The notes under the pieces: generated by a model | Seen by the model: only the letters and a program-made list of their open reading frames with translations | Told to the model about the DNA's origin: nothing | The model's database searches: none | In this document: positions 22,009 through 46,203 of the stretch, piece by piece | Numbering within the stretch: the stretch's first letter is position 1 | How the letters are laid out: each line of letters starts with the position of its first letter | Source: Thermodesulfobacteriota bacterium | Lineage (GTDB): Bacteria > Desulfobacterota_D > UBA1144 > Nemesobacterales > Nemesobacteraceae | Direction of reading: 5' to 3' | Assembly (NCBI GenBank): GCA_965249045.1 | Contig: OZ252213.1 | Coordinates: 1,399,904 to 1,463,903, forward strand | Length of the DNA stretch: 64,000 nt | Position numbers and translations under genes: made by a program

Positions 22009-22020
22009 ACGGCATCTTTT

Positions 22021-22094: not shown

Positions 22095-22104
22095 TTTTTC
22101 CGTC

Positions 22105-23556: not shown

Positions 23557-25094
23557 GAGTTATAACTAAATCTGGTGTTCAGAGTGATTTGAAAAAAAGC
23601 GGCGTATCCGGTTGATTTGTTGTTTGAGTTCAAAAAAACAACCAATAGGAGGATACGCCACTATGGGCAAGAAGGATAAAGTTTTTGACCTCAAAGGTCA
23701 AAAAGAGACAATCGATTCATTGAACGGACTGTTCAGCAAATTTGTCCACTCAGAAAGACAGAGAGCGGTTGCCAAAGAATTGAAGCTTGACGGACACATG
23801 GGAAACGGGCTTCAAGGCCCCGGGGCGGTTGCTGACCCCCTCAGCGAGATGTTGAGAGAGGGCGCCCGGTTTCTTCTCGGCACAGCCGTGCGGTGCGAGC
23901 TCGAAGAGTTCCTCAAGCAATACGAGGATCGTCTTCTGGACAATGGGAGAGTCGCGGTTGTGCGCAACGGATACCTGCCCGAGCGGGAGATACAGACCGG
24001 CATTGGTCCCGTGAAGGTACGAGTTCCCAAGGTGAGGTCCAAGGACGGGGAACCCGTCACTTTCCACTCGGTATTGGTGCCTCCCTATGTGCGCAAGGCC
24101 GCGACGCTTGAGGCGGCTTTGCCTTGGCTGTATCTGAAGGGAGTATCCACCGGGGAGATGGGGCCTGCGCTAGAGGCGCTGATCGGGCCTGAGGCCAGGG
24201 GGCTTTCGCAAAGCACGGTGTCGCGGCTCAAAAAACAGTGGGCCGAGCAATACGGTACCTGGAGGACCGGGGATTTGAGCGAGGGTCGCTGGGTGTATAT
24301 ATGGGTAGACGGCATATACAGCAACATACGAGGAGATAACCCTCGGTTGTGCGTGCTGGTGGTCATAGGGGTAAACGAACGTGGGGAGAAGCACTTCCTG
24401 GCTATCGAAGACGGTGTGCGAGAATCAAAGCAGAGCTGGCGTGAGGTATTGGTGAATCTCAAAGGGCGTGGGATGAAGGAAGCCCCGAAGCTTGCTGTTG
24501 GAGATGGAGCGCTTGGGTTTTGGCCCGCTCTTGAAGAGGTTTACGGAGAAACCCGTCAGCAGCGCTGCTGGGTGCACAAAACGATGAACGTACTCAACTA
24601 CCTGCCCAAGTCCTCCCAGCCCAAGGCCAAGAGGCAGCTGCATGATATCTGGCAGGCGGAGACAAAGGAAGACGCGGAGAGGGCCTTTGATCTGTTCTTG
24701 AAGACATATGAAGACAAGTACCCGAGAGCGGCACAGTGCCTTGTGAAGGACAGGGAGGAGTTGCTGGCGTTTTACGACTTTCCCGCCAACCACTGGCGGA
24801 GCATTCGGACAACGAACCCGATTGAGTCGGCCTTCGGCACAATACGGCATCGGACCAGACGCTGCAAAGGCTGTCTGAGTTCCGAGGGCATGTTGCACAT
24901 GATATTCAAGCTGGGGATGTGCGCGGAGAAGAACTGGCGCAAAATTAACGGGTTTGATTTCCTGGCGAAAGTGATAACGGGAGTGAAGTTCAGAGATGGG
25001 ATCGAAGAGACAACAGAGAAAACAGCGGAGGTGACGACAGACGATCAGGTCGCCGCTTGATCATGTCCTTGAACACCAGATTTGCATATATCTC
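23557..25094 (+). mobile_element. IS256-family insertion sequence, copy 1 (1538 bp), flanked by an 8-bp target-site duplication GAAAAAAT
   Basis: It matches copy 2 at 44666..46203 across the transposase ORF and at both ends. The terminal inverted repeats are imperfect and about 32 bp long (gagttataactaaatctggtgttca... versus the reverse complement gagatatatgcaaatctggtgttca...). The duplication GAAAAAAT lies at 23549-23556 and 25095-25102. Confidence 0.9.
23612..25060 (+). CDS. IS256-family (Mutator-type) transposase
   Basis: 482 aa with the C-terminal family signature HWRSIRTTNPIESAFGTIRHRTR. The protein is identical to the copy at 44700..46148. Confidence 0.9.
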   Translation: MICCLSSKKQPIGGYATMGKKDKVFDLKGQKETIDSLNGLFSKFVHSERQRAVAKELKLDGHMGNGLQGPGAVADPLSEMLREGARFLLGTAVRCELEEFLKQYEDRLLDNGRVAVVRNGYLPEREIQTGIGPVKVRVPKVRSKDGEPVTFHSVLVPPYVRKAATLEAALPWLYLKGVSTGEMGPALEALIGPEARGLSQSTVSRLKKQWAEQYGTWRTGDLSEGRWVYIWVDGIYSNIRGDNPRLCVLVVIGVNERGEKHFLAIEDGVRESKQSWREVLVNLKGRGMKEAPKLAVGDGALGFWPALEEVYGETRQQRCWVHKTMNVLNYLPKSSQPKAKRQLHDIWQAETKEDAERAFDLFLKTYEDKYPRAAQCLVKDREELLAFYDFPANHWRSIRTTNPIESAFGTIRHRTRRCKGCLSSEGMLHMIFKLGMCAEKNWRKINGFDFLAKVITGVKFRDGIEETTEKTAEVTTDDQVAA

Positions 25095-25615
25095 GAAAAA
25101 ATTTCCCAGAGTGATTAGAGAAAAATCTTTATATTCTCTTATGAACTCCATATTGAGGCCTATTCTAACGAAAGAAAATTCAAGCCTGAATACTACACGA
25201 TTTTATATTTTGTGTTGATCTTTACAGTCAAATTTTCTCATATAAAAACGCTCCACAATATAACACAGACTTGCCCGAACCATGAGGTTGGCCATTAGGA
25301 TAAATATTTTTCGTCATCCCACTCATCTTGACTAAGTTTCTATTGCAGGGGAATGACATGAGCACGGCTTGAAGGAATGAAAGCGATTTTTATGATCTCT
25401 CAATATACTCTAGAGAAAGTTGCTATGAGTGGTAAACGCAAGGAAATGTTACGGAAAAATCTGTGGCCTGAACAGTACTTTCAGTGATCATGGGCTACGC
25501 ATACCCGTAAACCTTTGATCAGGGGGAAGTAATACCATTAACAAATGGCAACGCTACGTCCATATCCACGCTCGGCCACTAGCCTGCTCCGCTGAGTTGA
25601 AATCGGCTGCTAACC

Positions 25616-27190
25616 CTAAAGATATTTTTCGTATTCTTTTTCGAAAAGATCTGATAGCGTATTAGCTTTGCGGTCATATTCTTCCAGATCATCCCAAGAA
25701 AGTCTGGGCTGAAGAAGAGTCGAATCAACCCCTGGACACTTAACTGGCACAGACAAATCAAGTATGGGGATTTTGACAAATTCGCTACCGTCAAGCGAAC
25801 CGTTTACCGCAGCGCTAACAAGAGCCCTTGTGGATGGGAGAGGCATTCTTTTACCAACTCCGAAAGGTCCGCCGGAAATCCCGGTATTCAGAAGCCAGAC
25901 GGTTACTTTGTGCTTCTCCATCCTTTCCTTCAGCATTCTGCCGTAGAACTTCGGGGGTCTTGGAAGAAAGGGAGACCCGAAACATGAACTGAAAGTCGCC
26001 TGGGGCTTGCTTACCCCTCTTTCCGTACCAGCAACTTTCGCCGTGTATCCCAGAAGGAAATAACGCATAGCTTGGTCGGGATCAAGTTTCGATATCGGGG
26101 GCAGAACACCGAAAGCGTCATAAGTCAGCATGAAAATACTTTTCGGAATGCTGCCTACTCCTTCCGGAACAATGTTCTCAAGCATATCAATCTGGTAAGC
26201 CCCGCGGGTGTTCTCCGTATGCCTGTCACTGTCAAAATCTATCTTTCCCGTCTCTAGATCAAGCTCAACGTTTTCCAAAACCGAGCCAAAATTAAGCGCC
26301 GCCCGATAAATCTCAGGCTCTGTGTTTGGACTAAGCTTTATAGTTTTTGCGTAACACCCGCCCTCGAAATTAAAAACTCCTTCATCAAACCATCCGTGCT
26401 CGTCGTCTCCGATAAGAGCTCTTTCAGGATCGGCGGAAAGCGTGGTTTTGCCCGTTCCCGACAGTCCGAAGAAAAGTGCTACGTTTCCATCTTTTCCGAT
26501 ATTTGCCGAACAGTGCATTGGAAAAACGTCTTTTTCCGGCAAAAGAAAATTCATTGCGGCAAAAACGGATTTTTTCATTTCTCCCGCATAGCGCGTTCCC
26601 CCGATAAGGGCAATTCTTCGGCTCAAGTTAAGAAATATGAACGTTTCGCTGTTAAGACCGTAGCTCTCGGGATCATCCGCCTTGAAACCCGGGGCCGAGA
26701 TAACGGTAAAACCCACTTCACTGTGGGGAAGCTCAGAAGCGTCTGGCCTTATAAAAAGGTTGTTTACGAAAAGATTGTGCCACGCAAATTCGTTTATAAC
26801 CCTTACGTTTGTTCTATAGTGGGGATGGGCGCAGACCTGCAGGTCTCTTACAAAAACGTCTTTCCCTTTGAAATAATCCATCACTTTTTCATAAAAGTGA
26901 TCAAATACCTCGGGTGACACAGGCTGATTTACCGCCCCCCAATCTACATCTTTTTCCGTAGAAGGTTCCTTTACCACAAACCTGTCCTTGGGAGATCTTC
27001 CAGTATGGGGAGAAGTGAAACCTACAAAAGTTCCCCGCTCACCGATGCATCCTTCGTTTCTTTTAATCGCCTCTTCATAGAGTCTGGGAACAGAGAGGTT
27101 GTAATAGACGCCGGAAGGATCTTCAAGCTGATGTTTTTCTGAAAGCTCCTTTTCGATTGAAAAATTCTCGGACATGTTTTTTGCCTCCAA
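25616..27190 (-). CDS. pckA: Phosphoenolpyruvate carboxykinase (ATP)
   Basis: 524 aa with the kinase-1a motif GLSGTGKTTLS and PEPCK-ATP family sequence throughout. Confidence 0.95.
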   Translation of the reverse strand: MEAKNMSENFSIEKELSEKHQLEDPSGVYYNLSVPRLYEEAIKRNEGCIGERGTFVGFTSPHTGRSPKDRFVVKEPSTEKDVDWGAVNQPVSPEVFDHFYEKVMDYFKGKDVFVRDLQVCAHPHYRTNVRVINEFAWHNLFVNNLFIRPDASELPHSEVGFTVISAPGFKADDPESYGLNSETFIFLNLSRRIALIGGTRYAGEMKKSVFAAMNFLLPEKDVFPMHCSANIGKDGNVALFFGLSGTGKTTLSADPERALIGDDEHGWFDEGVFNFEGGCYAKTIKLSPNTEPEIYRAALNFGSVLENVELDLETGKIDFDSDRHTENTRGAYQIDMLENIVPEGVGSIPKSIFMLTYDAFGVLPPISKLDPDQAMRYFLLGYTAKVAGTERGVSKPQATFSSCFGSPFLPRPPKFYGRMLKERMEKHKVTVWLLNTGISGGPFGVGKRMPLPSTRALVSAAVNGSLDGSEFVKIPILDLSVPVKCPGVDSTLLQPRLSWDDLEEYDRKANTLSDLFEKEYEKYL

Positions 27191-27345
27191 ATTCCCTATC
27201 GCCTATAGGCTTACAAACAACAAAGATGTCGGGGAAAATCGACTATTTTATTAAAGGACTTGTAAGATATACAAAGTTTCTCTTTTTGCAAGAATAAATC
27301 CGACTCGGCTCACAGAATCCCTAAGACCCGTTAAAAGAACTGGGT

Positions 27346-28275
27346 TTATGTCTTTGCGGTGACCTTCGATATCCATCCGGTTATCGCATCTATAGAGTCT
27401 TTGGGATTCTCTACGCAGTCATGTTTCGCCCCAAGTATATAGTGCAGTGTCACGTCTTCGTTACCCGCATGATTCATTATATTCTTAAGCTCCTTGGGCT
27501 CCCACACATCAACGATATCGTCGTCTACTCCGTGGATAAACAGAACCGGAATTTCCACATCTTTTATAATCTCGCAGGTTTTTGCGTAGTAGGCATGAGG
27601 CCCTCTCATGAACCACCAAGTCCTGTAAGTAAACATCTCGGCATCAACGGGGTTGAAAGAATCACCCCAAGCTCTGTAGACAATAAACACCTGATCGTTT
27701 TTCTTCTTCTCGGGGTTCGGACCCAATACCTCTCTGGCTTTTAGATAGATAGCCTCATAAGAAGGAATGCTCCTGTTTCTCTCAAGCCTTCTTTGCTGTG
27801 AATAGGGAAGAGAATAGGAACAGCCTTCCAGTATAAGCCCGTTTATCCCAAAAGAACCGGTCTGGCTGGCGTAGTAGACGGCCATGTTGGCCCCTAGGCT
27901 GTAACCCAGAATGAAAATGTTACGAAACCCTTCTTTCCGAAGAATATTCACCGATTCCTTCATTTCATGAATTGTGTCGGGAAAGACCCCTTCCCCCATT
28001 ATCTGACCCATAAACGCCATGCGGGTATTCACAGAAAGCGTGCTTATATTTTTTTCTTTAAGAAGCGGAGGGAGTCTGACTGGGGTTCCCCTTGTGAGAA
28101 AGTGTCCCAATACTCCGTAGAGATTTATGATTATGGGAGATTCGTAAAGATCTTCTTCCGAGGCAAACGCGGGGGTAACAAGAAGAGAATTCACCTCGAA
28201 TCCATCTTCAGTCTTATAAGTAAGAAGACTCTTCTGTTCGTTTACCATCGTAGAATCAGACGAATCTTCTGTCAA
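27346..28275 (-). CDS. Alpha/beta-hydrolase fold protein (GxSxG: GYSLGAN). It is a tandem paralog of the next gene.
   Basis: 309 aa. It shares VNTRMA...GYSLG...HG.DD motifs with 28256..29158. The true start may be the second Met, at 28248. Confidence 0.7.
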   Translation of the reverse strand: MTEDSSDSTMVNEQKSLLTYKTEDGFEVNSLLVTPAFASEEDLYESPIIINLYGVLGHFLTRGTPVRLPPLLKEKNISTLSVNTRMAFMGQIMGEGVFPDTIHEMKESVNILRKEGFRNIFILGYSLGANMAVYYASQTGSFGINGLILEGCSYSLPYSQQRRLERNRSIPSYEAIYLKAREVLGPNPEKKKNDQVFIVYRAWGDSFNPVDAEMFTYRTWWFMRGPHAYYAKTCEIIKDVEIPVLFIHGVDDDIVDVWEPKELKNIMNHAGNEDVTLHYILGAKHDCVENPKDSIDAITGWISKVTAKT

Positions 28276-29158
28276 GCCATCTTACTATAATGTCGCCCAT
28301 TTCTTCTTCCTTTCCATCGAGATTGTGACCCGTGTTAAGATAATAGGCGGAAACATCATCATTTCCGTTATCTATGGCTATCTGTGCAAGGTTGTAGGTT
28401 TCATCGGGTTTTACAAACGCATCGTTCCAGCCTTGTATAAGAAGAATCGGCAGCTTTATGTTTTCTATCTGCCTATAGCTCTTTACGGCTGTTGCCTCCG
28501 GACCGGCGAGAAACCACCATGTCTTGTATGTATATATCTCCGTGTGCTCAGGCTGGTAAGAGTTTCCCCTAGCCTTGAAAATAAGAATCGTCCTGTCTTG
28601 TTTTGAATCATGGGGTTTATCGCCAAGTATCGTTTTCGCCTCCTCATACACCTCATCGTAAGAAGGCTGACTTTCCCACTTGTTCCATCTTCTCCTTATC
28701 GAGTCGGGAATCGAATACGGAGTAGCAAGCGCAATTACGCCCTTTAGCAGGCCTAATTCATCGGAATCCGGCTGGCGGCTTTTCACCGAAAGATATCTAA
28801 GAACCACCCCTCCCCCCAGACTATAGCCCGAAACGATGATTCTCTCATACCCGATCTCACCCAAGTACCTCACTACCCCGTCTATCTGCGGAATGGTGTC
28901 GTCCACTATTCCAAAACCGAAGAAAAGCCCGAAATTGGCCATTCTGGTATTTATCGAGATAGACGAATAGCCGGCCTTGGCAAAAATCGGCGGCAAAAAC
29001 CTCTGGCTTCCGTCAAGAAAATTTCCCAGAAACCCGTGAACATGAATAATTATAGTTTTTCTCTTGTCAGAGTCGTTGTTAAGCGCTCTGTAGTAAAGGG
29101 CGTTAACCCTCCCCTTCCCTACTGGTACGGAAATCAGCTCCTGCTCTACGTATTTCAT
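28256..29158 (-). CDS. Alpha/beta-hydrolase fold protein (GxSxG: GYSLGGG)
   Basis: 300 aa. Paralog of 27346..28275. Confidence 0.7.
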   Translation of the reverse strand: MKYVEQELISVPVGKGRVNALYYRALNNDSDKRKTIIIHVHGFLGNFLDGSQRFLPPIFAKAGYSSISINTRMANFGLFFGFGIVDDTIPQIDGVVRYLGEIGYERIIVSGYSLGGGVVLRYLSVKSRQPDSDELGLLKGVIALATPYSIPDSIRRRWNKWESQPSYDEVYEEAKTILGDKPHDSKQDRTILIFKARGNSYQPEHTEIYTYKTWWFLAGPEATAVKSYRQIENIKLPILLIQGWNDAFVKPDETYNLAQIAIDNGNDDVSAYYLNTGHNLDGKEEEMGDIIVRWLDRRFV

Positions 29159-29301
29159 TATTAAACGCGGTTGTTTTTAAAAAACACTGATATTATAAAG
29201 ATCGACCGGGCAAGTCAATAGCATCCGTGACGAATTCCGACACCTGAGAAGAACGGCAAAGTTAAAAGACGCACCGAACCCAAAACTTGCGAGTGACAAA
29301 T

Positions 29302-29622
29302 TCAATGGTCTGCAAGTTCCATCGCGACTGAATCGGGGTTTTCCATCAGAAAATCCGCTTTTTTCTTTGCTTCCATCCAGTCTGACGCCTCTCCCACTTT
29401 TATGAGAGTGTTTTCCAAAGTGGCTTTCAAGAAAAGATCCCCCGTCCCCTTGTTCCAGAAGATCTGCCAGTTGTCGCCCCGAAAACCCCTTAGCCATCCG
29501 AAGGGAAAAAACCCTGAATAATCATCAATGGACTTCATCCACCGGTTCTCCATTTGTGCACTGTAGAGATAAAAACTGGGTAAAAAATACCCTCTGGTCT
29601 CACCACCAAAAGCGTTTTCCAA
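29302..29622 (-). CDS. Hypothetical Trp-rich small protein, 83-106 aa depending on start
   Basis: The ORF lies between nth and the hydrolase genes on the same strand: ...MENRWMKSIDDYSGFFPFGWLRGFRGDNWQIFWNKGTGDLFLKAT.... I recognise no family, and alternative overlapping ORFs exist. Confidence 0.3.
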   Translation of the reverse strand: MENAFGGETRGYFLPSFYLYSAQMENRWMKSIDDYSGFFPFGWLRGFRGDNWQIFWNKGTGDLFLKATLENTLIKVGEASDWMEAKKKADFLMENPDSVAMELADH

Positions 29623-29647
29623 AAAATCCTTTTAATTCCACAGGTCA

Positions 29648-30298
29648 TCATGACGCGTAAAGTTGTTCGAAGTACAAGCATATGTGTGATATCCCGCACT
29701 TTGAGCAGAGCGGTTTTCTCGCCTTGCAGATACTTCTTCCATGATCTCCGAGGGAATTCGAGAAAAATGTCCAGTCTCTTTCCGGAATACACTCCCTGAG
29801 ATCGAATTCAATTTTAACGGGGTCGGAATTTCGTGTAAGGCCCAGGCGGCGGCTTAACCTCATAATATGCGTGTCAACTATGACTCCGGGTTTTCTGAAA
29901 TGATTCCCTATTATAACGTTTGCAGTTTTCCTTCCGACTCCAGGAAGTTTGACCAACTCTTCCATTTTGCAGGGAACCTCTCCTGCGTGCATTTGTATTA
30001 TTTGCCGCGAACAGTTTATTATCGCTTTTGCCTTGTTTCTGTAGAAACCCGTTGATCTTATGTCATCTTGGAGTTCTTCTTCTGATGCCTGCGAAAAAGC
30101 TTTTAGATCCGGGTATTTGCGGAAAAGTCCTAGGGTTACCATATTTACTCGTTTATCCATGCACTGAGCGGAGAGAATAGACCCAATCAGAAGCTCTGAA
30201 GCGTTTTCAAAAACGAGATGACATTTTGCGTCGGGATAGGTTTTTTTTAGAAATCGAAGCACCTTACGTGCCTTCGCTTTTAAATCCCGGATATTCAT
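29648..30298 (-). CDS. nth: Endonuclease III (DNA glycosylase/AP lyase) with a [4Fe-4S] cluster
   Basis: HhH-GPD motif (LVKLPGVGRKTANVI) and the C-terminal Cys ligands (CKARKPLCSKCGISHIC). The likely start is MNIRDL at 30298. The listed ORF starts 48 codons earlier. Confidence 0.85.
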   Translation of the reverse strand: MNIRDLKAKARKVLRFLKKTYPDAKCHLVFENASELLIGSILSAQCMDKRVNMVTLGLFRKYPDLKAFSQASEEELQDDIRSTGFYRNKAKAIINCSRQIIQMHAGEVPCKMEELVKLPGVGRKTANVIIGNHFRKPGVIVDTHIMRLSRRLGLTRNSDPVKIEFDLRECIPERDWTFFSNSLGDHGRSICKARKPLCSKCGISHICLYFEQLYAS

Positions 30299-30491
30299 CT
30301 CGAACAGCAAAATATATACGCAAAACTTCTCAGGCCGCAAGCAGATAGGATTTGACGAGCAAGGGAAGTTGTAAGGTGTCTCCCCACACGCGACATTGAT
30401 CCGGACAGAAGACCTGCTCATAAACATAAGAAAGGGGGACATGAACTTCTCAGGTCCCCCTTTCTTATCTAGAGTTTTCTCTTACTGAAGT

Positions 30492-30758
30492 TCAGTCATT
30501 TCTGGCCGGCTCAAGGCCTTCTTTGCCCTCAAAAAAATCTTTGTTTATATCAATGAACTTCTGCCATTTCTCGGGCAATTCGTCTTCGTGAAATATGGCA
30601 TCCACCGGACATGGGTCAACACATGCTCCGCAGTCTATGCATTCATCGGGATGGATAATCAACTGATCATCTCCTTCATATATGCAATCCACCGGACATG
30701 CTTCGACACAAGCTTTGTCTTTCACTCCGATACATGGTTCAGCAATTATGTATGCCAT
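30492..30758 (-). CDS. Ferredoxin with 2x[4Fe-4S] or 7Fe cluster motifs
   Basis: 88 aa with two cysteine clusters ([14 protein letters not shown] and [12 protein letters not shown]). Confidence 0.85.
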
Positions 30759-30984
30759 TTTTGAAACCTCCGAACTGGCGCGTTTCTACCGTACAAACTT
30801 ATTTTCTCTATATTAACTAAAGCTCTTGCAAATAAAAGACACCCAATCAGGTGATTTTTTACTCTTCAGGCGTTTTTCCGGAATCTTTGAGTTCAGGGGC
30901 CACTTGGGCCGGAGCGGTATCGGCTAAGGAAGCAGGCGCTGATTTAGCATCCGCACCCGTTTTAACTTCGTGCAATTGTCCAGT

Positions 30985-31335
30985 TTATTCCACATCACGG
31001 GTCTGCCCCGGGGATTCTTCCGAAAGCTCCCCGGTTGGCTGAGAAAATTCCTCAAACACTTCGCTCGGCGATTTCTCCACAACCGAACCCGTTATCGACT
31101 TTATGGAAGTATAACCCAGAAAAAGAGAAGTAATTACAAATAGAAGCCCAAGAAGCCTCGTCATTTTCACGAGAAAGGGCATTGCTCCACTTGAACCAAA
31201 GACTGACTCTGAGCTTCCACCTCCGAACATTGAGCCTATGTCGCCAGATTTGCTCGGCTGAAGCAGTATGATCAGTACAATAAGCACACTGAGCACTATG
31301 TGAATAATTTTTACCGACGGTATCAAGAACTCCAA
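30985..31335 (-). CDS. secG: Preprotein translocase subunit SecG
   Basis: 116 aa with two TM helices and a Gly-rich loop (LLQPSKSGDIGSMFGGGSSESVFG). Confidence 0.8.
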   Translation of the reverse strand: MEFLIPSVKIIHIVLSVLIVLIILLQPSKSGDIGSMFGGGSSESVFGSSGAMPFLVKMTRLLGLLFVITSLFLGYTSIKSITGSVVEKSPSEVFEEFSQPTGELSEESPGQTRDVE

Positions 31336-31338
31336 TTT

Positions 31339-32136
31339 CTAACCCCCAAAGGATTTTATTATTCTGAAAAAAGAGTCGGCCGAAAGACTGGCTCCTCCAA
31401 CCAGAACTCCGTCAACTTCTTCAACGGACATAATCTCGGATATGCTACCCGTTTTAACGCTCCCGCCATATAGAATTTTTATATTATTGCCCGGACCGGG
31501 AAACATTTCAGTCAGAAATTCTCTTATATGTTGATGAATTTCAGCTATTTCCAAAGAAGTAGCGTTTTTCCCAGTCCCTATGGCCCAGACTGGTTCGTAC
31601 GCTATAACGATATCCGAGACCTGTTCTTCACCCAGAGAACGCAATGCACTTTCTATCTGAGCCTTTATCGGTGAAAAGAGGAGCCTTTTTCTCATCAAAG
31701 CGTCTTCACTTCTGCAGATTGCCTCCTCCCTCTCGGCCTCAGTTTCTCCCACACAGAGAATTATTTTCAAGCCGCAGGAAATTGAAATGGAGACCTTTTC
31801 GGTTATCTCTTCATCAGTTTCTCCAATTATGTGTCTTCTTTCGGAATGGCCGAGAATAACCCACCTACATCCAGCATCGATGAGCATCGGCGCAGACACC
31901 TCACCCGTAAAAGCTCCCCCAATCTTACCGAAAACGTTTTGAGCCCCAAGATCTATGTTTGAACCCGAGATACAGCCCCGTACTACGTCAAGAGCCGTGT
32001 AGGGAGGCACAAGCACTACCTGACAGGCATCATAGTCTTCTCCCAGCAGGTTGACTATTGAGCCGGACAACTCCTGTGCTTCCTCCCGGAGCAGGTTCAT
32101 TTTCCAGTTTCCAACAACAAGCTTTTTATCCATCTG
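31339..32136 (-). CDS. tpiA: Triosephosphate isomerase
   Basis: VVGNWKMN...GHSERR...AYEPVWAIGTG motifs. The likely start is MDKKLVV at 32136. Confidence 0.9.
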   Translation of the reverse strand, partial: QMDKKLVVGNWKMNLLREEAQELSGSIVNLLGEDYDACQVVLVPPYTALDVVRGCISGSNIDLGAQNVFGKIGGAFTGEVSAPMLIDAGCRWVILGHSERRHIIGETDEEITEKVSISISCGLKIILCVGETEAEREEAICRSEDALMRKRLLFSPIKAQIESALRSLGEEQVSDIVIAYEPVWAIGTGKNATSLEIAEIHQHIREFLTEMFPGPGNNIKILYGGSVKTGSISEIMSVEEVDGVLVGGASLSADSFFRIIKSFGG

Positions 32137-32230
32137 GTACCCTTTGACGAAAATTCGTCTTGTTCTAAAAACGCAGAAAGCTACTTCCTGATTACAATCA
32201 AGGCAAGTTTTTTTCTTTTTCGAAGAATAC

Positions 32231-33370: not shown

Positions 33371-33408
33371 GTCACGAAAGCACCTGAAGAATCGAGTAGA
33401 ATGGGAAG

Positions 33409-33924: not shown

Positions 33925-33974
33925 CTGGGACGCTTACAAAAGAAGGGTTGTTAACAAACCCCGGCTGGGGTCTG

Positions 33975-37300: not shown

Positions 37301-38071
37301 CCCAAGCGCGCAGTTTATGCCGACGCTGAAGGGTTTTGCGTGGCGAACCGAGTTCCAGAAAGCCCCCACTGTCTGCCCTGAGAGGGTGCGCCCGGAACGA
37401 TCCGTTATGGTAACGGAAAGCATGACTGGAATCCTGTCCCCGCCGCGCGCATCGAAAAAGGTTTCAATGGCGTATATGGCCGCTTTGAGGTTCAGGGTGT
37501 CAAAAGTGGTCTCGGGCAGAAGTATATCAACCCCTCCCTCAACAAGAGCTTCTGCCTGCTCGCGGTAAGCCTCCACGAGCTGGTCAAAGGAAACCGCCCT
37601 GTAAGACGGATCGTTTACGTCAGGGGACATTGACGCAGTCTTGTTAGTCGGACCCAGTGCTCCGGCAACAAAACACGACCTATGGGGATTTTTCTCCATA
37701 AAGTCAGAAGCTGCCTTCTTTGCGAGTTTTGCCGACTCTACATTAAGGGTTCTCACCCAGCTTTCGAGGCCGTAATCGGCCTGAGCTATGGAGGTGGAAC
37801 TAAAGGTGTTGGTCTCAACTATATCGCAACCGGCTTCGAAGTATTTTCTGTGGATTTCATATATGACGTCGGGTCTTGTAAGGGAAAGGAGGTCGTTATT
37901 GCCCTTTAGATCCACCGGGTGATCAGAGAACAGATCTCCCCTGAAATCCTCTTCTTTGAGGTCGTGCCTTTGGATCATTGTGCCCATAGCGCCGTCGAGG
38001 AAAACTATTCTTTTATCCGCAAGAGCCTCGAGCCGCGCAGACACTTTTGTACACCTATCTTCCGTATTCAT
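34367..38071 (-). CDS. metH: Cobalamin-dependent methionine synthase
   Basis: 1234 aa with Hcy-binding, pterin-binding, B12-binding (DxHxxG region: [11 protein letters not shown]) and AdoMet reactivation domains. Confidence 0.95.
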
Positions 38072-38156
38072 TCTCGCTCACCTTGTCGAGAGACCTTATA
38101 TTCTCCTTTTCCCGCCGGCAAACGCCGCTTTACAGGAAAAAAGAAAAGCACGGAGT

Positions 38157-38948
38157 CTACCATATGTTTCTGAGTTCTCTTAATTTTATGAAAACCGCCA
38201 TCGGATCATTCTCCAAAGACGGGTCTTTTTCCCTGAGCGCATCCAGGAGGGCCGGATCACCCGTTCTCATAAAGGGATTGTATGTTCTCTCCTCCCCTAG
38301 GGTTGACCGGGGAAACTTATCTTCGGGAATTTCCTCAAGCTTTTTCTTCGCATCTTCGTTCTCCGGAGCAAACTCAAGAGCGAACCTAAGATTAGTTTCC
38401 GCGTAGTCGTGACCGCAGAACATCCTTAGTCCGTCAGAAAGACTGGAAAGCTTAAAGGCAAAGGTCTCATAAAGATCCTCGACTTTCCCCCTGAACTTTA
38501 CGTTTCCGCATCCTGAGACAAATACCGTATCGCCCAGAAAGATGTTGTCACCGATTATAAAGGAGGTGTGTTCCGGGCAGTGCCCTGGAGTATGAATCAC
38601 CTGAAGTCGCTGCTTTCCGAACGATATCTCGTCTCCCTCCTCTATACCTTCGCTTCTTGGAGCAACGTGGTCGAGGGCCGTCGTATGAATAAGAATCTTC
38701 GAGGAGAGAAAAACCTTCGTTATGGGATTGTTTCCGTAAATGTGATCGGGATGCGCGTGGGTGTTCAGGACGTATTTAACCCTGTAGTCCCTCTCTCTTA
38801 TGATTTTCAGAAGAGTGACCGGGTCAAGCGGGTCTATTACCACGCATTGCCCCGTTTCCTCGCACGCCACCAGGTAATTGTAGTTGCTGTCGCTTTCGCT
38901 GACCTTGAAGCCGTGTATTGAGAATCCGTCCTCGCTAAGTACGTTCAT
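38157..38948 (-). CDS. MBL-fold metallo-hydrolase (hydroxyacylglutathione hydrolase-like)
   Basis: HxHxDH motif (NTHAHPDHIYGN) and downstream metal ligands. The start is uncertain; I chose MNVLSEDG. Confidence 0.75.
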   Translation of the reverse strand: MNVLSEDGFSIHGFKVSESDSNYNYLVACEETGQCVVIDPLDPVTLLKIIRERDYRVKYVLNTHAHPDHIYGNNPITKVFLSSKILIHTTALDHVAPRSEGIEEGDEISFGKQRLQVIHTPGHCPEHTSFIIGDNIFLGDTVFVSGCGNVKFRGKVEDLYETFAFKLSSLSDGLRMFCGHDYAETNLRFALEFAPENEDAKKKLEEIPEDKFPRSTLGEERTYNPFMRTGDPALLDALREKDPSLENDPMAVFIKLRELRNIW

Positions 38949-39132
38949 CCGAGCCTCCTTTTCGCGTGAAAGTGTACCTGAAAGCCTCATTGCGAATAAA
39001 AGACCGGAGACGCGCACTGCGGGTGAGCTGAGCAAAGAACTCCTTGACACCTACCGTGTTAGTCGCGGAATTTCTTTGACATCAAAAGCCGTTAGGGTAG
39101 TTTTTACTCCCGATTGACATTTTGGAGGCGTC

Positions 39133-40368
39133 ATGGGTTTCGTAGAATCTCTTAAATGCAAGGAATGCGGCGAGCTTTATCCCAAGGAACCGAAGCATGT
39201 ATGTGAGATGTGTTTCGGTCCTCTCGAAGCTGTATACAACTACGATGAGATAAAAAAGCATATCTCAAGGAAAGAAATAGCTTCCCGTCCGCAGAACATA
39301 TGGAGATACAAGGAACTTCTCCCCCTTGACTCCGAACCCACTCTCGGAACCCAGGTAGGGTACACTCCGCTTGTGCGAGCAAGAAATCTGGCCGAGGCGC
39401 TTGGGGTTTCGGAAATCTACGTGAAAAACGACGCGGTCTGCTACCCCACCCTTTCTTTTAAGGACAGGGTCGTATCCGTAGCCCTCTCAAAAGCAAAAGA
39501 GTTCGGATTCGAGACGATTGGCTGTGCATCCACGGGGAATTTAGCAAACTCCGTATCCTCGATTTCCGCTGCAGGAAATCTAAAAAGCTTCATATTAATT
39601 CCCCACGACCTTGAACAATCGAAAATACTCAACACCATAGTCTACGGAGCGAATCTTATAGGCGTAAGAGGCGCTTACGACGATGTAAACAGGCTCTGCA
39701 GCGAAATAGCCGACAAATACAACTGGGCTTTCGTGAACATAAACATGAGGCCCTATTATTCCGAAGGTTCCAAGTCATACGCGTTTGAAGTAATGGAACA
39801 ACTCGGATGGAAAGCCCCCAAGCACATAGTGGTTCCGATGGCAAGCGGTTCTCTCCTCACCAAGGTCTGGAAAGCCATAAAGGAATTTGAGTTGCTCGGA
39901 ATCGTGGAACCTCAGGGTTCAAAAATATACGGCGCCCAGGCAACGGGATGTTCGCCCATATCAACCGCATTTAAAAACGACTGGGAGACGTTCAAACCGG
40001 TAAAACCGGACACTATAGCGAAATCCCTCGCCATTGGTACTCCGGCCGACGGCTACTACGCAATGAATATAATAAGGGAAAGCGGTGGAGTAGCGGAAGA
40101 CGTAAGCGATGCGGAAATAGTGGACGCGATAGAGCTTCTTGCGAGGACCGAAGGCATTTACACCGAGACCGCGGGAGGAGTAACGCTCGGGGTAACGAAA
40201 AAGCTGATAGAAGAGGAAAAGATTCCCCGCGATGAGCCAATAGTGGTATCAATAACTGGAAACGGTCTTAAAACCCAGGATGCCGTTGAGGGAAGGCTTG
40301 GAAAGCCCCAGGTGATAGATCCTACTCTTGAGGACTTTGAAGAGCTTTACAGCAGTAAAAAACTGTAG
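39133..40368 (+). CDS. thrC: Threonine synthase-like PLP enzyme (fold type II) with an N-terminal zinc-ribbon
   Basis: SFKDRV lysine motif, a Gly-rich PLP loop and ThrC-like length (411 aa). The N-terminus carries CKECGELY...CEMCFGPL. I cannot distinguish a true ThrC from a ThrC-paralogous sulfhydrylase by eye. Confidence 0.8.
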   Translation: MGFVESLKCKECGELYPKEPKHVCEMCFGPLEAVYNYDEIKKHISRKEIASRPQNIWRYKELLPLDSEPTLGTQVGYTPLVRARNLAEALGVSEIYVKNDAVCYPTLSFKDRVVSVALSKAKEFGFETIGCASTGNLANSVSSISAAGNLKSFILIPHDLEQSKILNTIVYGANLIGVRGAYDDVNRLCSEIADKYNWAFVNINMRPYYSEGSKSYAFEVMEQLGWKAPKHIVVPMASGSLLTKVWKAIKEFELLGIVEPQGSKIYGAQATGCSPISTAFKNDWETFKPVKPDTIAKSLAIGTPADGYYAMNIIRESGGVAEDVSDAEIVDAIELLARTEGIYTETAGGVTLGVTKKLIEEEKIPRDEPIVVSITGNGLKTQDAVEGRLGKPQVIDPTLEDFEELYSSKKL

Positions 40369-40443
40369 TGTTACGTGTTATAGTCATTGGTATATGGTGG
40401 GTAGCAAAATTTTAGTAAACCAAGAGAAAAACGGGAGAAAAAC

Positions 40444-40716
40444 ATGGTATCGGTAAGAATTCCAACCCCTCTTAGAAAACTCTCAGGAGACAGAGACGAG
40501 CTTGAGATAGAAGCATCCACGGTATCCGTTCTCATAGAAGAACTCGAGAGCGAATGTCCTGGCATAAAGAACAGACTCTGTGATGAGAGCGGAAACGTAA
40601 GAAGATTCATAAATCTCTACGTGAACAATGAAGACATAAGGTTTCTTGACGGAGTGGACACGAAACTTAACGACGGAGATGTCGTATCAATTATTCCGGC
40701 AATAGCCGGAGGATGA
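40444..40716 (+). CDS. MoaD/ThiS-family sulfur-carrier protein (C-terminal ...AGG)
   Basis: 90 aa, with a beta-grasp-like sequence ending in GlyGly-stop. It lies 75 bp downstream of the thrC-like gene on the same strand. Confidence 0.7.
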
Positions 40717-40766
40717 GTCGGGGACACACGGCAAGAGCTTTAAGAGTATTAGATAATACTTTAGGT

Positions 40767-41846
40767 TTAGTGAATTAATTCTTTTATTTTATTTAAGTAT
40801 TTCTCGATCAAAGGTTCTTTTCTTCCGTTGTAGCTTCCGGCAAATTCCATTAAAGCTTCCTTCTGTTTTCTGGTGAGTTTCTGCGGTATTACCACTTTTA
40901 CCACAACGTATTGATCGCCAAGACTCCCGGATTCCACGTCCACAAGCCCCTTTCCTCTAAGCTTGAAGGTTTGTTCCGGCTGCGTTCCGGCGGGGATTTT
41001 CATCTTGGTGGTACCCTTTAGAATCGGAACGTCTACCTCATCTCCAAGAGCCGCCTGAGTAAAGCTTATCGGAAACTCGCACACGATGTCGTTTCCGTCC
41101 CGTCTGAAAATGGGGTGTTCCCTTACCATTACCTGTATGTAGAGATCTCCCGGAGGACCTCCACGTGCTCCAGGTTCCCCTTCCCCCCTTATGACAAGCC
41201 TCATTCCACTGGAAATCCCGGCGGGTATGTTGACCTTTACCGCCTTCTCGGTGTATGAAAGGCCGGATCCCCGGCAACTTCTACAGGGATTCGTTATAAT
41301 TTTTCCGCTTCCCCCACACGAAGGGCAACCCTGGCTTATTGAAAACGGACCTTGGGAAAAAGCAACCGATCCTCTTCCTCCGCAACGATCACAAACTGAC
41401 TCTCCTCCAACCGCAGCTCCGGAACCAGAGCAATCATCACAGAGTTTTCTTTTCCTGATTTTTACTTCTCTCTGAGTCCCAAACGCAGCTTCATCAAAAT
41501 CCACTTCAAGGTTGTACTGCAGAGTCTCTCCTTGCCGGCCCCTGCTCCTGCCCATTCCTCCCGTGAAAACGTCATCGAAGAGATCGCCGAAAATATCGCT
41601 GAACCCCGAAAAACCGCCCATGCCGTCACCCGACATCTGGCCGAAACTGTCATAACGAGCCCTCTTATCCCTGTCGTTAAGCACTTGGTAGGCCTCGTTT
41701 ATTTCCTTGAACTTTTCTTCGGCATTCTTATCCTCGGGGTTGCGGTCCGGATGGTACTTGAAGGCAAGATCCTTGTAGGAACTTTTTATATCTTCGGGGG
41801 AAGCGTTTTTCTCAACAGCAAGTATTTCGTAGTAGTTTTTAGCCAT
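40767..41846 (-). CDS. dnaJ: Chaperone DnaJ (full-length, with zinc-finger repeats)
   Basis: J domain with HPD, a G/F region and four CxxCxGxG repeats (CDDCSGSG, CDRCGGRG, CPSCGGSG, CRSCRGSG). Confidence 0.95.
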   Translation of the reverse strand: MAKNYYEILAVEKNASPEDIKSSYKDLAFKYHPDRNPEDKNAEEKFKEINEAYQVLNDRDKRARYDSFGQMSGDGMGGFSGFSDIFGDLFDDVFTGGMGRSRGRQGETLQYNLEVDFDEAAFGTQREVKIRKRKLCDDCSGSGAAVGGESVCDRCGGRGSVAFSQGPFSISQGCPSCGGSGKIITNPCRSCRGSGLSYTEKAVKVNIPAGISSGMRLVIRGEGEPGARGGPPGDLYIQVMVREHPIFRRDGNDIVCEFPISFTQAALGDEVDVPILKGTTKMKIPAGTQPEQTFKLRGKGLVDVESGSLGDQYVVVKVVIPQKLTRKQKEALMEFAGSYNGRKEPLIEKYLNKIKELIH

Positions 41847-41873
41847 TTTAGAATTAGGGAGCGGGAGTTTTCG

Positions 41874-42476
41874 TCAGTCTTTTTCTTCAGAATCTTCCTC
41901 GGAGGTTTTTTCAGCACCTTGAGACACGGATACCATTGAGGGTCTTAGCAATCTTCCGTTAAGAAGATAGCCTTTCTGGACCTCTGAGATTATGGTGCCA
42001 CTTTCGTAAGTTTCCGAGTGCTCCTTGTAAACAGCTTCGTGGTAACTTGGGTCAAAACCAGTTCCCTCGCTTGAGTCTATCGGTGTAACGCCGAAGTTTC
42101 CTAGACCCGCCAGAAATTGCGCGTGAACAAGCTTTATTCCATCAAGAAAAGCTACGAAGTCTGTTTTTTCGCCAAGCAATTCTCCAGAAAGCTCAATAGC
42201 TCTTTCAATGTTGTCAAGAACGAAAAGCAGCTCCTTTAACTTCTGCGCGTTTCCGAAATCAAGTATTTCCTGCTTTTCCCTCGCAAGTCTTTTTTTGTAG
42301 TTATCAAAATCGGCCGAAAGCCTTAAATACTTCTCCCTCAAGGCTTCGAGTTCAGCGAAGGAGTCTTCCTCTATCTCTTTTTCTTGTCCGTCAGTACCGG
42401 GAGGTTCGGGCTCTTGCAGATCCTCAGCGCCGTTTTTCTCTTTCTCTTCAATTTCCGTTATCGTGTTCTCACTCAT
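41874..42476 (-). CDS. grpE: Nucleotide exchange factor GrpE
   Basis: 200 aa with an acidic N-terminus, a coiled coil and a GrpE C-terminal domain. Confidence 0.9.
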   Translation of the reverse strand: MSENTITEIEEKEKNGAEDLQEPEPPGTDGQEKEIEEDSFAELEALREKYLRLSADFDNYKKRLAREKQEILDFGNAQKLKELLFVLDNIERAIELSGELLGEKTDFVAFLDGIKLVHAQFLAGLGNFGVTPIDSSEGTGFDPSYHEAVYKEHSETYESGTIISEVQKGYLLNGRLLRPSMVSVSQGAEKTSEEDSEEKD

Positions 42477-43506
42477 TCCGTAATTCTCCGTTAACCCTCT
42501 TTGTGACCATCTTCGCCGTGTAGTTCACAAGCGGGATGATTCTTGAATAGTCCATTCTAGAGGGGCCGAACACACCTAAACTCCCGTAGCTGTTTCCTTT
42601 GCAGTAAGGTGCCGCCACGAGGCTGAAGCCGCGAGGCATCCCTTTTTCTGAACCTACAAAAACCTTCGAGCTACCATCTTTTACAACCGACTTCAGAAGG
42701 CTGGAAAGAAGTTCCTGATCCTCGAGTATCTCGATTATGGTCTTATAGAGACCGGAATCTCCGAAATCAAGAGACTCAATGACGAAAACCTTTCCTTTTA
42801 TGAATATCCCCGCCTTTCTCTCCCTCTCGAAAAGCTCACTGCTTATTCTAAGCACTTTTTCAAGGATTTCACTGTATTCGGTAGTGGTTCTCTTTATTTT
42901 CTCAAGCACAACCTTGCGCACCTGGTCAATCGTAAGGCCCAGAATCAGTTGATTAAGATAACTCCCTATCCTCTCGACCTGGGAATCCCGAATGGGTTTG
43001 GCAAGCTTTATGTAAGTTTTTTCCGTAAGCCCACCTTCAAAGACCAGAAACAGGAGACATTCCCTGTTTCCCATTTTCAGAAGCTTTGCGGACTTGACTC
43101 TGAGAGTGTTTCTCTGGGGAAGCATCGCGAGACCTGCAAGCTTCGTAAAGTCGGAAAGTATTGAACTTGTAGCGCTTATCACGTGATCAAGCGTGCCGTC
43201 AATCTCTTCATATTTATTCTCAAGGAACCGCAGGCCGACATCCGGTGAGTTTTCCACGTGGAGAATGTTCTCTACGTAATAATTTATTCCCTTCTCCGTG
43301 GGAAGCCTGCCGGAAGAAATATGACTTTGGGTGAGAAAACCCGCTTCCATAAGCGAATTAAGCTCCTGGCGGACCGTGGCCGGAGACCATTTTATATCGT
43401 ATTTCGATATAAGGGTCGAAGAACCGATGGGGCTTCCGGTCTCAATAAAATGATCTACTACAAAGCCCAGAAAAGCCTTGTTTCTTGGAGAGATTGGCTG
43501 TGTCAT
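42469..43506 (-). CDS. hrcA: Heat-inducible transcription repressor HrcA
   Basis: 345 aa with a winged-helix N-terminus (GSPIGSSTLISKY) and HrcA C-domains. It overlaps the grpE start by 8 nt. Confidence 0.9.
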   Translation of the reverse strand: MTQPISPRNKAFLGFVVDHFIETGSPIGSSTLISKYDIKWSPATVRQELNSLMEAGFLTQSHISSGRLPTEKGINYYVENILHVENSPDVGLRFLENKYEEIDGTLDHVISATSSILSDFTKLAGLAMLPQRNTLRVKSAKLLKMGNRECLLFLVFEGGLTEKTYIKLAKPIRDSQVERIGSYLNQLILGLTIDQVRKVVLEKIKRTTTEYSEILEKVLRISSELFERERKAGIFIKGKVFVIESLDFGDSGLYKTIIEILEDQELLSSLLKSVVKDGSSKVFVGSEKGMPRGFSLVAAPYCKGNSYGSLGVFGPSRMDYSRIIPLVNYTAKMVTKRVNGELRNE

Positions 43507-43516
43507 CTATTTCTGA

Positions 43517-43545
43517 AATATAATTTCCGCCTACTGTATTGTCAA
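43517..43545 (-). promoter_or_regulatory. Sigma70-like promoter immediately upstream of hrcA (TTGACA, 17-nt spacer, TATATT). It implies a near-leaderless transcript.
   Basis: Reverse complement of 43517-43545. The -10 ends 10 nt before the hrcA ATG and there is no SD. No CIRCE-like inverted repeat is visible in the 97 bp between hrcA and the IS end. Confidence 0.45.
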
Positions 43546-44665
43546 CGGAATCAAAAGTAAATTCTGCACTTACCAAACTGTCATACAGAATCTCAAATTA
43601 ACTAGTTCCGCTAATTAGTGTCTGCCAGAGAAGCTCTTAACTTCCTGAAATAAAACGAAATAATTATGATTTTCCATGGTGAAGATTGTCCATATACGGT
43701 ACAATTATATCCGAACGATCAACACGCGGGCCTTTTACAAACAATCTTCGGGGGTTTTCCATGAGAAAGATAAAAGAACTGCAGCTTAGTCTCGGCGAAG
43801 TTCCGATCGAGAAGATACGCTTCAATCCCAAGTCAAGAGACGACATTCCCGCCGTACTCAGAGGACTTCAGTACATTTACGTAAACACCAAGACGCGCGA
43901 GGAACTGTTTTCGCTTCTTGAGAAGGAGTTTCTTGCGGAAGTGAATTTTGACGTCGGCCGTCCGGGGATGGACATATGGAGGGTGGTGGTTCTTGGGGTG
44001 TTGAAGCAGGGGCTTGGCTGTGATTACGACCGGCTTCACGAGCTTGCAAACAATCACAGCTCGCTACGCCGGATGCTGGGTCACAGCGACTATTCGGGAG
44101 AGTACGAATACGAGTTGCAGACTATAATGGACAACGTGTTTTTGCTTGAGCCGGAGATGCTCAACAAGATAGGGGAGATAGTGGTGAGGAGCGGTCACGA
44201 GGTCTCAAAAAAAAAGCCTGGAGAAGGGTTGCGGGGGCGGTGTGACTCGTTTCCCGTCAAAACCGACGTTGAATATCCCACGGACGTGAGATTGCTCTGG
44301 GACGCTGTGAGGAGTCTTGTCAAGGCGGTGGCTTCGGCTGCGCGGAGGAACGGGCTTTGGGGGTGGCGTCAGGAAGGCCATCTTCTTGGGAAGGGGAAGA
44401 AGCTGTTTACCGTGGTAAGCACTTCGCGCAGACGCAGGAAGGCTGGGGATGAGGGGGTAAAAGAGTATTTGAGGTTTAGCGAGAACATGGTGAAGCGGGC
44501 GGAGAAGACTCTTTTGGAGCTGGTGAGTGTGAAAGGGCCGCGGTGGTGCATTGACAATATTAACCAGTGGCTGCGTCACTCCCGCAGGCAGATAGACCAG
44601 GTGGAGAGGCGTTTGGTTAAAGGGGAAGCGATACCGCGGGGGGAGAAGGTGTTTTCGGTGTTTGA

Positions 44666-46203
44666 GAGATATATGCAAATCTGGTGTTCAAGGACATGAT
44701 CAAGCGGCGACCTGATCGTCTGTCGTCACCTCCGCTGTTTTCTCTGTTGTCTCTTCGATCCCATCTCTGAACTTCACTCCCGTTATCACTTTCGCCAGGA
44801 AATCAAACCCGTTAATTTTGCGCCAGTTCTTCTCCGCGCACATCCCCAGCTTGAATATCATGTGCAACATGCCCTCGGAACTCAGACAGCCTTTGCAGCG
44901 TCTGGTCCGATGCCGTATTGTGCCGAAGGCCGACTCAATCGGGTTCGTTGTCCGAATGCTCCGCCAGTGGTTGGCGGGAAAGTCGTAAAACGCCAGCAAC
45001 TCCTCCCTGTCCTTCACAAGGCACTGTGCCGCTCTCGGGTACTTGTCTTCATATGTCTTCAAGAACAGATCAAAGGCCCTCTCCGCGTCTTCCTTTGTCT
45101 CCGCCTGCCAGATATCATGCAGCTGCCTCTTGGCCTTGGGCTGGGAGGACTTGGGCAGGTAGTTGAGTACGTTCATCGTTTTGTGCACCCAGCAGCGCTG
45201 CTGACGGGTTTCTCCGTAAACCTCTTCAAGAGCGGGCCAAAACCCAAGCGCTCCATCTCCAACAGCAAGCTTCGGGGCTTCCTTCATCCCACGCCCTTTG
45301 AGATTCACCAATACCTCACGCCAGCTCTGCTTTGATTCTCGCACACCGTCTTCGATAGCCAGGAAGTGCTTCTCCCCACGTTCGTTTACCCCTATGACCA
45401 CCAGCACGCACAACCGAGGGTTATCTCCTCGTATGTTGCTGTATATGCCGTCTACCCATATATACACCCAGCGACCCTCGCTCAAATCCCCGGTCCTCCA
45501 GGTACCGTATTGCTCGGCCCACTGTTTTTTGAGCCGCGACACCGTGCTTTGCGAAAGCCCCCTGGCCTCAGGCCCGATCAGCGCCTCTAGCGCAGGCCCC
45601 ATCTCCCCGGTGGATACTCCCTTCAGATACAGCCAAGGCAAAGCCGCCTCAAGCGTCGCGGCCTTGCGCACATAGGGAGGCACCAATACCGAGTGGAAAG
45701 TGACGGGTTCCCCGTCCTTGGACCTCACCTTGGGAACTCGTACCTTCACGGGACCAATGCCGGTCTGTATCTCCCGCTCGGGCAGGTATCCGTTGCGCAC
45801 AACCGCGACTCTCCCATTGTCCAGAAGACGATCCTCGTATTGCTTGAGGAACTCTTCGAGCTCGCACCGCACGGCTGTGCCGAGAAGAAACCGGGCGCCC
45901 TCTCTCAACATCTCGCTGAGGGGGTCAGCAACCGCCCCGGGGCCTTGAAGCCCGTTTCCCATGTGTCCGTCAAGCTTCAATTCTTTGGCAACCGCTCTCT
46001 GTCTTTCTGAGTGGACAAATTTGCTGAACAGTCCGTTCAATGAATCGATTGTCTCTTTTTGACCTTTGAGGTCAAAAACTTTATCCTTCTTGCCCATAGT
46101 GGCGTATCCTCCTATTGGTTGTTTTTTTGAACTCAAACAACAAATCAACCGGATACGCCGCTTTTTTTCAAATCACTCTGAACACCAGATTTAGTTATAA
46201 CTC
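44666..46203 (-). mobile_element. IS256-family insertion sequence, copy 2 (1538 bp, inverted relative to copy 1), flanked by a 9-bp target-site duplication GGTGTTTGA
   Basis: It shares the same ends as copy 1. The duplication ggtgtttga lies at 44657-44665 and 46204-46212. Confidence 0.9.
44700..46148 (-). CDS. IS256-family (Mutator-type) transposase, identical to 23612..25060
   Basis: The 482-aa translation is identical to the copy 1 transposase. Confidence 0.9.
   Translation of the reverse strand: MICCLSSKKQPIGGYATMGKKDKVFDLKGQKETIDSLNGLFSKFVHSERQRAVAKELKLDGHMGNGLQGPGAVADPLSEMLREGARFLLGTAVRCELEEFLKQYEDRLLDNGRVAVVRNGYLPEREIQTGIGPVKVRVPKVRSKDGEPVTFHSVLVPPYVRKAATLEAALPWLYLKGVSTGEMGPALEALIGPEARGLSQSTVSRLKKQWAEQYGTWRTGDLSEGRWVYIWVDGIYSNIRGDNPRLCVLVVIGVNERGEKHFLAIEDGVRESKQSWREVLVNLKGRGMKEAPKLAVGDGALGFWPALEEVYGETRQQRCWVHKTMNVLNYLPKSSQPKAKRQLHDIWQAETKEDAERAFDLFLKTYEDKYPRAAQCLVKDREELLAFYDFPANHWRSIRTTNPIESAFGTIRHRTRRCKGCLSSEGMLHMIFKLGMCAEKNWRKINGFDFLAKVITGVKFRDGIEETTEKTAEVTTDDQVAA

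Follow-up and report, generated by a model that had tools for sequence, protein, structure and literature searches.

A stretch of 64,000 nucleotides from a Thermodesulfobacteriota bacterium (assembly GCA_965249045.1, contig OZ252213.1, positions 1,399,904 to 1,463,903), here called the window, was analyzed for two copies of one insertion sequence (IS) that lie in inverted orientation on either side of a block of core genes. Comparison of window positions 23557-25094 with the reverse complement of 44666-46203 gave 0 mismatches over 1538 bp, and identity halted precisely at those ends. The pair was the sole long inverted repeat found by a repeat search of the window; a repeat of this length that is perfect throughout cannot have arisen by chance. 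The copies are 19,571 bp apart. Their terminal inverted repeats are imperfect, agreeing at 24 of 32 positions (21 of the first 26), and contain a perfect 14-bp core, AAATCTGGTGTTCA, which in the window is confined to the four IS ends. Target-site duplications of 8 bp and 9 bp flank copy 1 and copy 2, respectively. An initial annotation of this DNA had described identical copies with imperfect inverted repeats of about 32 bp at their ends and duplications of just these lengths, and base-level comparison bore out each of these statements. The features of the locus are collected in Table 1.

Table 1. Features of the two IS copies and of the DNA that they interrupt or enclose, in window coordinates.
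Feature	Position	Strand	Basis or remark
MFS gene, 3' part, codons ~17-390	22433..23556	-	ORF restored on IS removal; intact in L092
Target-site duplication of copy 1, left, 8 bp, GAAAAAAT	23549..23556	.	single copy at the unoccupied site in L092
IS256-family insertion sequence, copy 1, 1538 bp	23557..25094	+	identical to copy 2; ends match those of 77.5%-identical relatives
Left terminal inverted repeat of copy 1	~23557-23588		24/32 match to the right repeat
Transposase gene of copy 1, 465 aa + stop	23663..25060	+	PF00872, NF033543, ISCth4 alignment
Right terminal inverted repeat of copy 1	~25063-25094		24/32 match to the left repeat
Target-site duplication of copy 1, right, 8 bp, GAAAAAAT	25095..25102	.	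direct reading
MFS gene, 5' part, ATG + 18 codons, MEFIREYKDFSLITLGNFF	25095..25151	-	frame now enters the IS and ends at 37 aa
Intervening block: pckA to hrcA-grpE-dnaJ genes, MFS 5' end, left part of ISNCY	25103..44656	.	colinear with L091 and L092
ISNCY-family element, ~1.8 kb of own sequence, copy 2 nested inside	43604..46967	+	NF033593; intact gene in L091
Target-site duplication of copy 2, left, 9 bp, GGTGTTTGA	44657..44665	.	occurs once in L091
IS256-family insertion sequence, copy 2, 1538 bp	44666..46203	-	identical to copy 1
Transposase gene of copy 2	44700-46097	-	same sequence as copy 1
Target-site duplication of copy 2, right, 9 bp, GGTGTTTGA	46204..46212	.	direct reading

A sibling contig was retrieved by exact-protein look-ups with genes of the window, namely ENA ERZ25766727 ctg362170_233x_c, a circular metagenome contig of 1,848,232 bp that NCBI holds, too. 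Four of its loci (L094, L092, L091, and L095) tile window positions 1489-64000 colinearly. Both IS copies are missing from this contig at the sites that they occupy in the window, and at either site the two alignment blocks share precisely the bases that are duplicated in the window. Without the insertions, the sequences there are ...GGAAGAAAAAATTTCCC... and ...TTTTCGGTGTTTGAGGAACAC..., and each target is present once. Four stretches (~41 kb) were compared base by base, and 3 mismatches were found outside an ISNCY-family element that hosts copy 2; the whole tiling of the window on the sibling adds only a handful more differences. Since a near-identical sibling retains both sites empty, the insertions are real, recent, independent, and simple. 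Furthermore, the 19.6-kb block is already in place in this IS-free sibling, which rules out a composite transposon, and its orientation in the window equals the ancestral one seen in the sibling, so that no inversion has been fixed. We therefore conclude with high confidence that the window holds two copies of one active IS, which transposed very recently and independently into sites 19.6 kb apart. The initial annotation had already proposed very recent transposition, two independent simple insertions instead of a composite transposon, and the lack of a fixed inversion. All three proposals agree with the intact duplication at each copy, the single targets at the empty sites, and the orientation of the block in a near-identical genome that carries neither copy.

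Both insertions are intragenic. The initial annotation had the pair bracketing core genes; it was right about the gene content of the block, but the copies do not simply lie between core genes. Excision of copy 1 together with one duplication restores a minus-strand open reading frame (ORF) of 390 amino acids (aa) which matches Pfam MFS_1 with 187 bits, and an intact gene of 390 aa for this major facilitator superfamily (MFS) transporter is called in sibling locus L092. Copy 1 interrupts the gene after codon 19 (...LGNFF/FQCGF...), at a point that is taken to be within the presumed first transmembrane helix. The first possible in-frame start of the 3' remnant past the IS is a GTG at 23467, which is 46 codons downstream. 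Likewise, excision of copy 2 restores a plus-strand transposase ORF of 481 aa which scores 433 bits with the NCBIfam model NF033593 for ISNCY (cut-off 325), and sibling locus L091 has the intact 481-aa gene at the same site. We infer that the MFS transporter gene and the ISNCY transposase are both inactivated.

The interrupted MFS gene is neighboured by a paralogous one. Genes for tRNA-Lys(UUU) and tRNA-Glu(UUC) are located at window positions 22020-22182 between the two paralogues, ~250 bp past the MFS stop at 22433; these two tRNAs were the only features found when the whole window was scanned with Rfam at gathering threshold. In a 99%-identical relative, L093:15292-17826 (ENA ERZ26167216 ctg467690_17.71x_l) corresponds to window positions 22381-23556 and 25095-25151. 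The MFS gene of this relative carries indels of +1, -7, and -4 nt, followed by a different IS256-family IS with a 403-aa transposase that is 31% identical. Taken with the IS insertion in the window, these indels indicate that the same MFS gene is decaying independently in two lineages.

The element hosting copy 2 belongs to the ISNCY family, as its reconstructed transposase passes the equivalog model and its ~1.8 kb end in terminal inverted repeats. These are imperfect and read TTCCGCT(T)AATTAGTGTCTG(C/T)CAGA at ~43604 and ~46967; the element ends ~100 bp upstream of hrcA. It departs from the family in three respects: the reconstructed 481-aa protein has no Pfam domain match, no target duplication is evident at the ends of the element, and here it is disrupted by the nested IS256-family copy. 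The base-by-base comparison gave 28 differences between window and sibling; 25 fall inside this 1.8-kb element, 17 of them within 250 bp (44297-44547), and together they cause 14 amino-acid changes. The cluster of single-nucleotide polymorphisms (SNPs) has the appearance of gene conversion, with another ISNCY copy as donor, or of mixing in the assembly consensus.

A single long ORF occupies positions 23663-25060 of the 1538-bp element in copy 1. A frame of 482 codons can be read from a TTG, and the initial annotation had given the transposase as 482 aa. This ORF is real, but a product of 465 aa is the more likely one, starting at an alternative ATG (position 23663) that follows an AGGAGG. The 465-aa form is the one adopted by public gene calls, and its N-terminus, MG(K/R)K.KVF, is kept even among homologues with as little as 66% identity. 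The protein scores 226 bits with Pfam PF00872 (Transposase_mut; cut-off 21) and 322 bits with the NCBIfam IS256 equivalog NF033543 (cut-off 150), and it stays far under the cut-offs of the next NCBIfam families, ISH6 and IS1249. In an alignment of 9 homologues, residues D216, D281, and E388 are invariant, as are C302 and H305 of a C-x-x-H motif. The transposase also aligns, over residues 64-400 and with E=8e-29, to the ISCth4 TnpA structure 6xg8, and D216, D281, C302, H305, and E388 fall on the ISCth4 motifs FIDAIH, ADALSG, QRCIVH, and TTNTIES. The catalytic and insertion-domain residues of ISCth4 TnpA are D175, D241, C262, H265, and E348 (PMC7780238); residue spacing is the same in both proteins (65-66, 21, and 86). 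The assignment to the IS256 family made in the initial annotation is thus upheld by family scores above the cut-offs, by the DDE and C-x-x-H residues, and by the 8-bp and 9-bp duplications. Judged from its sequence, this is an unnamed element new to the family, present in public assemblies without such annotation.

ISCth4 of Clostridium thermocellum (structures 6XG8, 6XGW, and 6XGX; PMC7780238) is the only solved relative. Besides aligned D/D/E and C-x-x-H residues at identical spacing, it has a similar size (1503 bp) and split -35 and -10 hexamers in its right and left ends which come into register with a ~6-bp spacer, as would be the case here. It differs in being a distant match (103.7 bits by phmmer), in the sequence of its terminal repeats, in the TGTAAA motif, which is absent from the present element, and in its duplications, which are 8 bp as compared to mostly 9 bp. 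The type element IS256 from Staphylococcus and Enterococcus likewise consists of a single ORF for a Mutator-type DDE transposase between imperfect terminal repeats and makes duplications of 8-9 bp. It shares AT-leaning targets, multiple identical copies, and insertion into genes, and its inverted copies mediate chromosomal inversions (PMC5065196) and form composite transposons. However, its sequence kinship to the present element is only distant, and the assignment is supported by the family model and not by close identity. IS256 is ~1.3 kb long as compared to 1538 bp; further differences are the lineage-specific 41-aa insertion near the N-terminus of the 465-aa transposase, the predominance of 9-bp duplications, and the host, apparently an uncultured bacterium akin to Dadabacteria.

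The closest element in the one-genome-per-species GTDB shows 77.5% DNA identity across the whole length of 1538 bp. Its ends fall on the same bases, an independent confirmation of the IS boundaries. Besides the element's own, the nearest protein cluster is 88% identical. Relatives in other genomes keep the left end GAGTTATAAC and TTGAC(G/T) at the equivalent right-end position, and they are also flanked by 9-bp duplications. They include unnamed IS256-family elements of marine Gammaproteobacteria (Marinobacter, Nitrincola, Halieaceae) and of the Thermodesulfobacteriota metagenome-assembled genome (MAG) OZ253668.1. These have transposases of 68-78% amino-acid identity, under the usual thresholds for the same IS, together with the same ends, GAG(T/C)TATA...AATCTGGTGT, and 9-bp duplications. 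The 41-aa insertion (residues ~8-48, window 23663-23810) is kept, according to the alignment, in a sub-lineage of 462-465-aa proteins which includes the OZ253668.1 element and the other 465-aa homologues; it is missing from the 415-aa proteins of the gammaproteobacterial forms (~70% identity). An exact match to the 35-nt left end of the IS was not found in a scan of JGI metagenome contigs, and a literature search on Dadabacteria and transposases yielded nothing directly relevant.

OZ253668.1 (L001 and L002; 1.92-Mb MAG) likewise contains two inverted copies of its 77.5%-identical IS, ~21 kb apart, one with a 9-bp duplication and the other with none. A conserved or domesticated layout of inverted pairs was considered and rejected; the flanks in OZ253668.1 share nothing with the window, and the likeness is apparently coincidental.

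Fifteen contigs from two ENA assemblies carry a gene for exactly this 465-aa transposase. At each of ten loci that were read, all 1538 bp of the IS align with 99.9-100% identity, and these represent 8 distinct sites in addition to those of the window; in related genomes, the IS is thus polymorphic at many further places. Six of them carry 9-bp duplications, one an 8-bp duplication, and one none; the cataloguing of duplications suggested in the initial annotation hence gave 8 or 9 bp at both window copies and at 7 of 8 further sites. The targets are moderately AT-rich, with 66% A+T across nine of them. The sibling genome, in which the two window sites are empty, holds at least two IS copies at other places (L084 and L085).

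Some of these copies deserve description. At L088:1735-4820, one IS copy has inserted into a second one and is flanked by the 9-bp duplication ATTGTCCAG. The copy without a duplication lies in the sibling at ~1.46 Mb (L085:2895-4432 and L090:2895-4432) and reads GTAGTTCTG-IS-CAGAATTTT, the five bases beside each end being mutual reverse complements; it could be the trace of a past recombination between IS copies or of a deletion. Many sites in L081-L089 are located beside other transposases and beside defence or accessory genes, among them those for ThsB-TIR, OLD-TOPRIM, large helicases, and an AlwI restriction enzyme accompanied by methylases; in related strains, these flanks may represent genomic islands of variable content.

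The initial annotation had also noted that the IS is GC-richer than its surroundings and had suggested horizontal origin. The excess is real, with 54.1% G+C in the IS as compared to 46.8% in the remaining window; the ISNCY element, at 52.6%, is also above the rest of the window. IS elements often differ from their hosts in composition, and the excess is for this reason weak evidence for horizontal origin. Among named sequences, the closest homologues of the prolyl-tRNA synthetase (ProRS) of the window come from Candidatus Dadabacteria, with identities of 95% (a partial sequence), 85%, and 75%, which makes this the probable lineage of the host. The 465-aa sub-lineage is found both in the Thermodesulfobacteriota MAG OZ253668.1 and on a contig of an apparent relative of the host (ProRS 79% identical to that of the window; transposase 66%), and the IS lineage may thus have been resident in the broader host lineage for some time. 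A recent transfer of the IS between phyla is unsupported: the DnaK next to one IS copy elsewhere is 98% identical to the DnaK of the sibling, which suggests that this contig comes from a close relative of the host. From this one case, the other IS-bearing contigs are probably close relatives of the host, too.

Elements of the IS256 family transpose by a copy-out/paste-in route via a circle with a 5-8 bp spacer and staggered joins (PMC7780238), and by family membership we infer the same for the present IS. One IS end would attack the other to give a figure-eight, replication would produce a double-stranded circle in which the abutted ends are separated by a spacer of 5-8 bp, and staggered joining of this circle to the target would leave the duplications of 8 or 9 bp. 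A promoter might also be formed across the circle junction, with TTGCAT contributed by the right end (bp 8-13) and TATAAC by the left (bp 5-10). With a spacer of n bp, the two hexamers would be separated by 11+n bp, that is 17 bp at the canonical 6-bp spacer. Relatives have TTGACG or TTGACT at the right-end position of TTGCAT. The putative layout, although its -35 hexamer is weak, would mirror the split promoter of ISCth4 and IS256.

No observation conflicts with the reading of the pair as copies of an active IS256-family element, and only three minor points can be noted. Elements of this family are ~1.2-1.5 kb long, with terminal inverted repeats of ~20-40 bp; a length of 1538 bp and a 41-aa N-terminal insertion put the present one at the upper edge of, or marginally above, the usual sizes. 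The terminal repeats of some members contain a subterminal TGTAAA motif (Dodd et al. 1994, cited in PMC7780238); neither TGTAAA nor TTTACA occurs within 80 bp of either IS end, although the motif is not universal to the family, and relatives of the IS share the core AATCTGGTGT in its place. Finally, only 3 of the 6 bases in the proposed -35 hexamer TTGCAT are those of the consensus.

Other explanations of the pair were weighed against two independent insertions. Tn4001 is a composite transposon with inverted IS256 copies, and inverted identical copies of an IS256-family element that bracket a piece of DNA reproduce this type of architecture. Composite transposons of the Tn4001 type have been described (Prudhomme et al. 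2002, as cited in PMC7780238). That both copies arrived here as such a unit, together with the 19.6 kb that they enclose, is nevertheless virtually inconceivable, and we rejected it: a near-identical genome with neither IS has the block at the same place and equally oriented, and this empty-site genome refutes the idea. Moreover, a shared outer duplication is lacking, since each IS has its own matching duplication and the outer flanks GAAAAAAT and GGTGTTTGA are unlike, and the cargo would consist of single-copy housekeeping genes. The pair might instead be an artefact of assembly, with a repeat consensus pasted at two places or a chimera of strains. The source assembly is evidently of metagenome type, with many co-existing close strains, and the cluster of 25 SNPs in the ISNCY element next to copy 2 could reflect consensus mixing. 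Look-ups in the public index with two proteins unique to the window, the ISNCY-IS fusion ORF and the truncated MFS ORF, gave no record of its own contig; a 744-aa ORF likewise gave no match, probably owing to a differently called gene start. Artefacts do not, however, produce exact 8-bp and 9-bp duplications of targets that are single-copy at the empty site. Duplications of equal length flank the same IS at other independent sites, and the flanks in the window are otherwise colinear with, and nearly identical to, a circular contig of 233x. We regard an artefact as highly improbable.

The block may have been inverted an even number of times, or be flipping in the population, so that the present orientation would be one of two states. 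Inverted repeats of 1.5 kb are adequate for homologous recombination, and the pair could serve as a substrate for RecA-mediated recombination that flips the 19.6-kb block. A fixed 1-Mb inversion in Staphylococcus aureus OC8 is bounded by IS256 copies (PMC5065196), and the IS copy without a duplication in the sibling could be the trace of such recombination elsewhere. Against this, both duplications in the window are intact, the orientation is the same as in the IS-free genome, and no recombinant junction was seen, though read data were not searched; repeated or ongoing inversion is therefore considered unlikely. GC skew of the block merely follows the coding strand and is for this reason of no use for judging its direction of replication. 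A broader and still rather doubtful picture is that of an ongoing IS burst in a natural population of Dadabacteria-like bacteria with small genomes (~1.85 Mb), whose strains differ by ~1 SNP per 10-20 kb and in which the block, including the hrcA-grpE-dnaJ heat-shock operon, is present in both orientations.

All gene names given to the block by the initial annotation held up: NCBIfam models support pckA, nth, secG, tpiA, metH, thrC, hrcA, and dnaJ, whereas the support for def and grpE comes from Pfam. The hrcA-grpE-dnaJ operon (window 40767-43611) lacks dnaK, which is located elsewhere in related genomes. A CIRCE operator of HrcA was not found at up to 3 mismatches anywhere in the window, including the junction between the ISNCY element and hrcA. 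Additionally, window positions 30580-30714 in a small ferredoxin-like gene contain a 48-nt direct repeat with 77% identity and 87-nt spacing, which probably reflects two 4Fe-4S cluster motifs.

The significance of these findings is local and modest, involving no novel mechanism or kind of element; apart from the mildly interesting possibility that the pair allows inversion of the block in the population, this is an ordinary case of recent IS256-family transposition. If the reading of a burst with a flipping block were true, the insertions would be polymorphic between strains and a 19.6-kb housekeeping block would be an invertible segment. The two polymorphic sites are usable as strain markers, and the pair is a potential substrate for inversion. 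The insertions show that the IS is currently active in this uncultured lineage, where they would knock out an MFS transporter and the transposase of another transposon. With filled and empty sites in near-identical genomes, the states before and after IS transposition can be cleanly compared.

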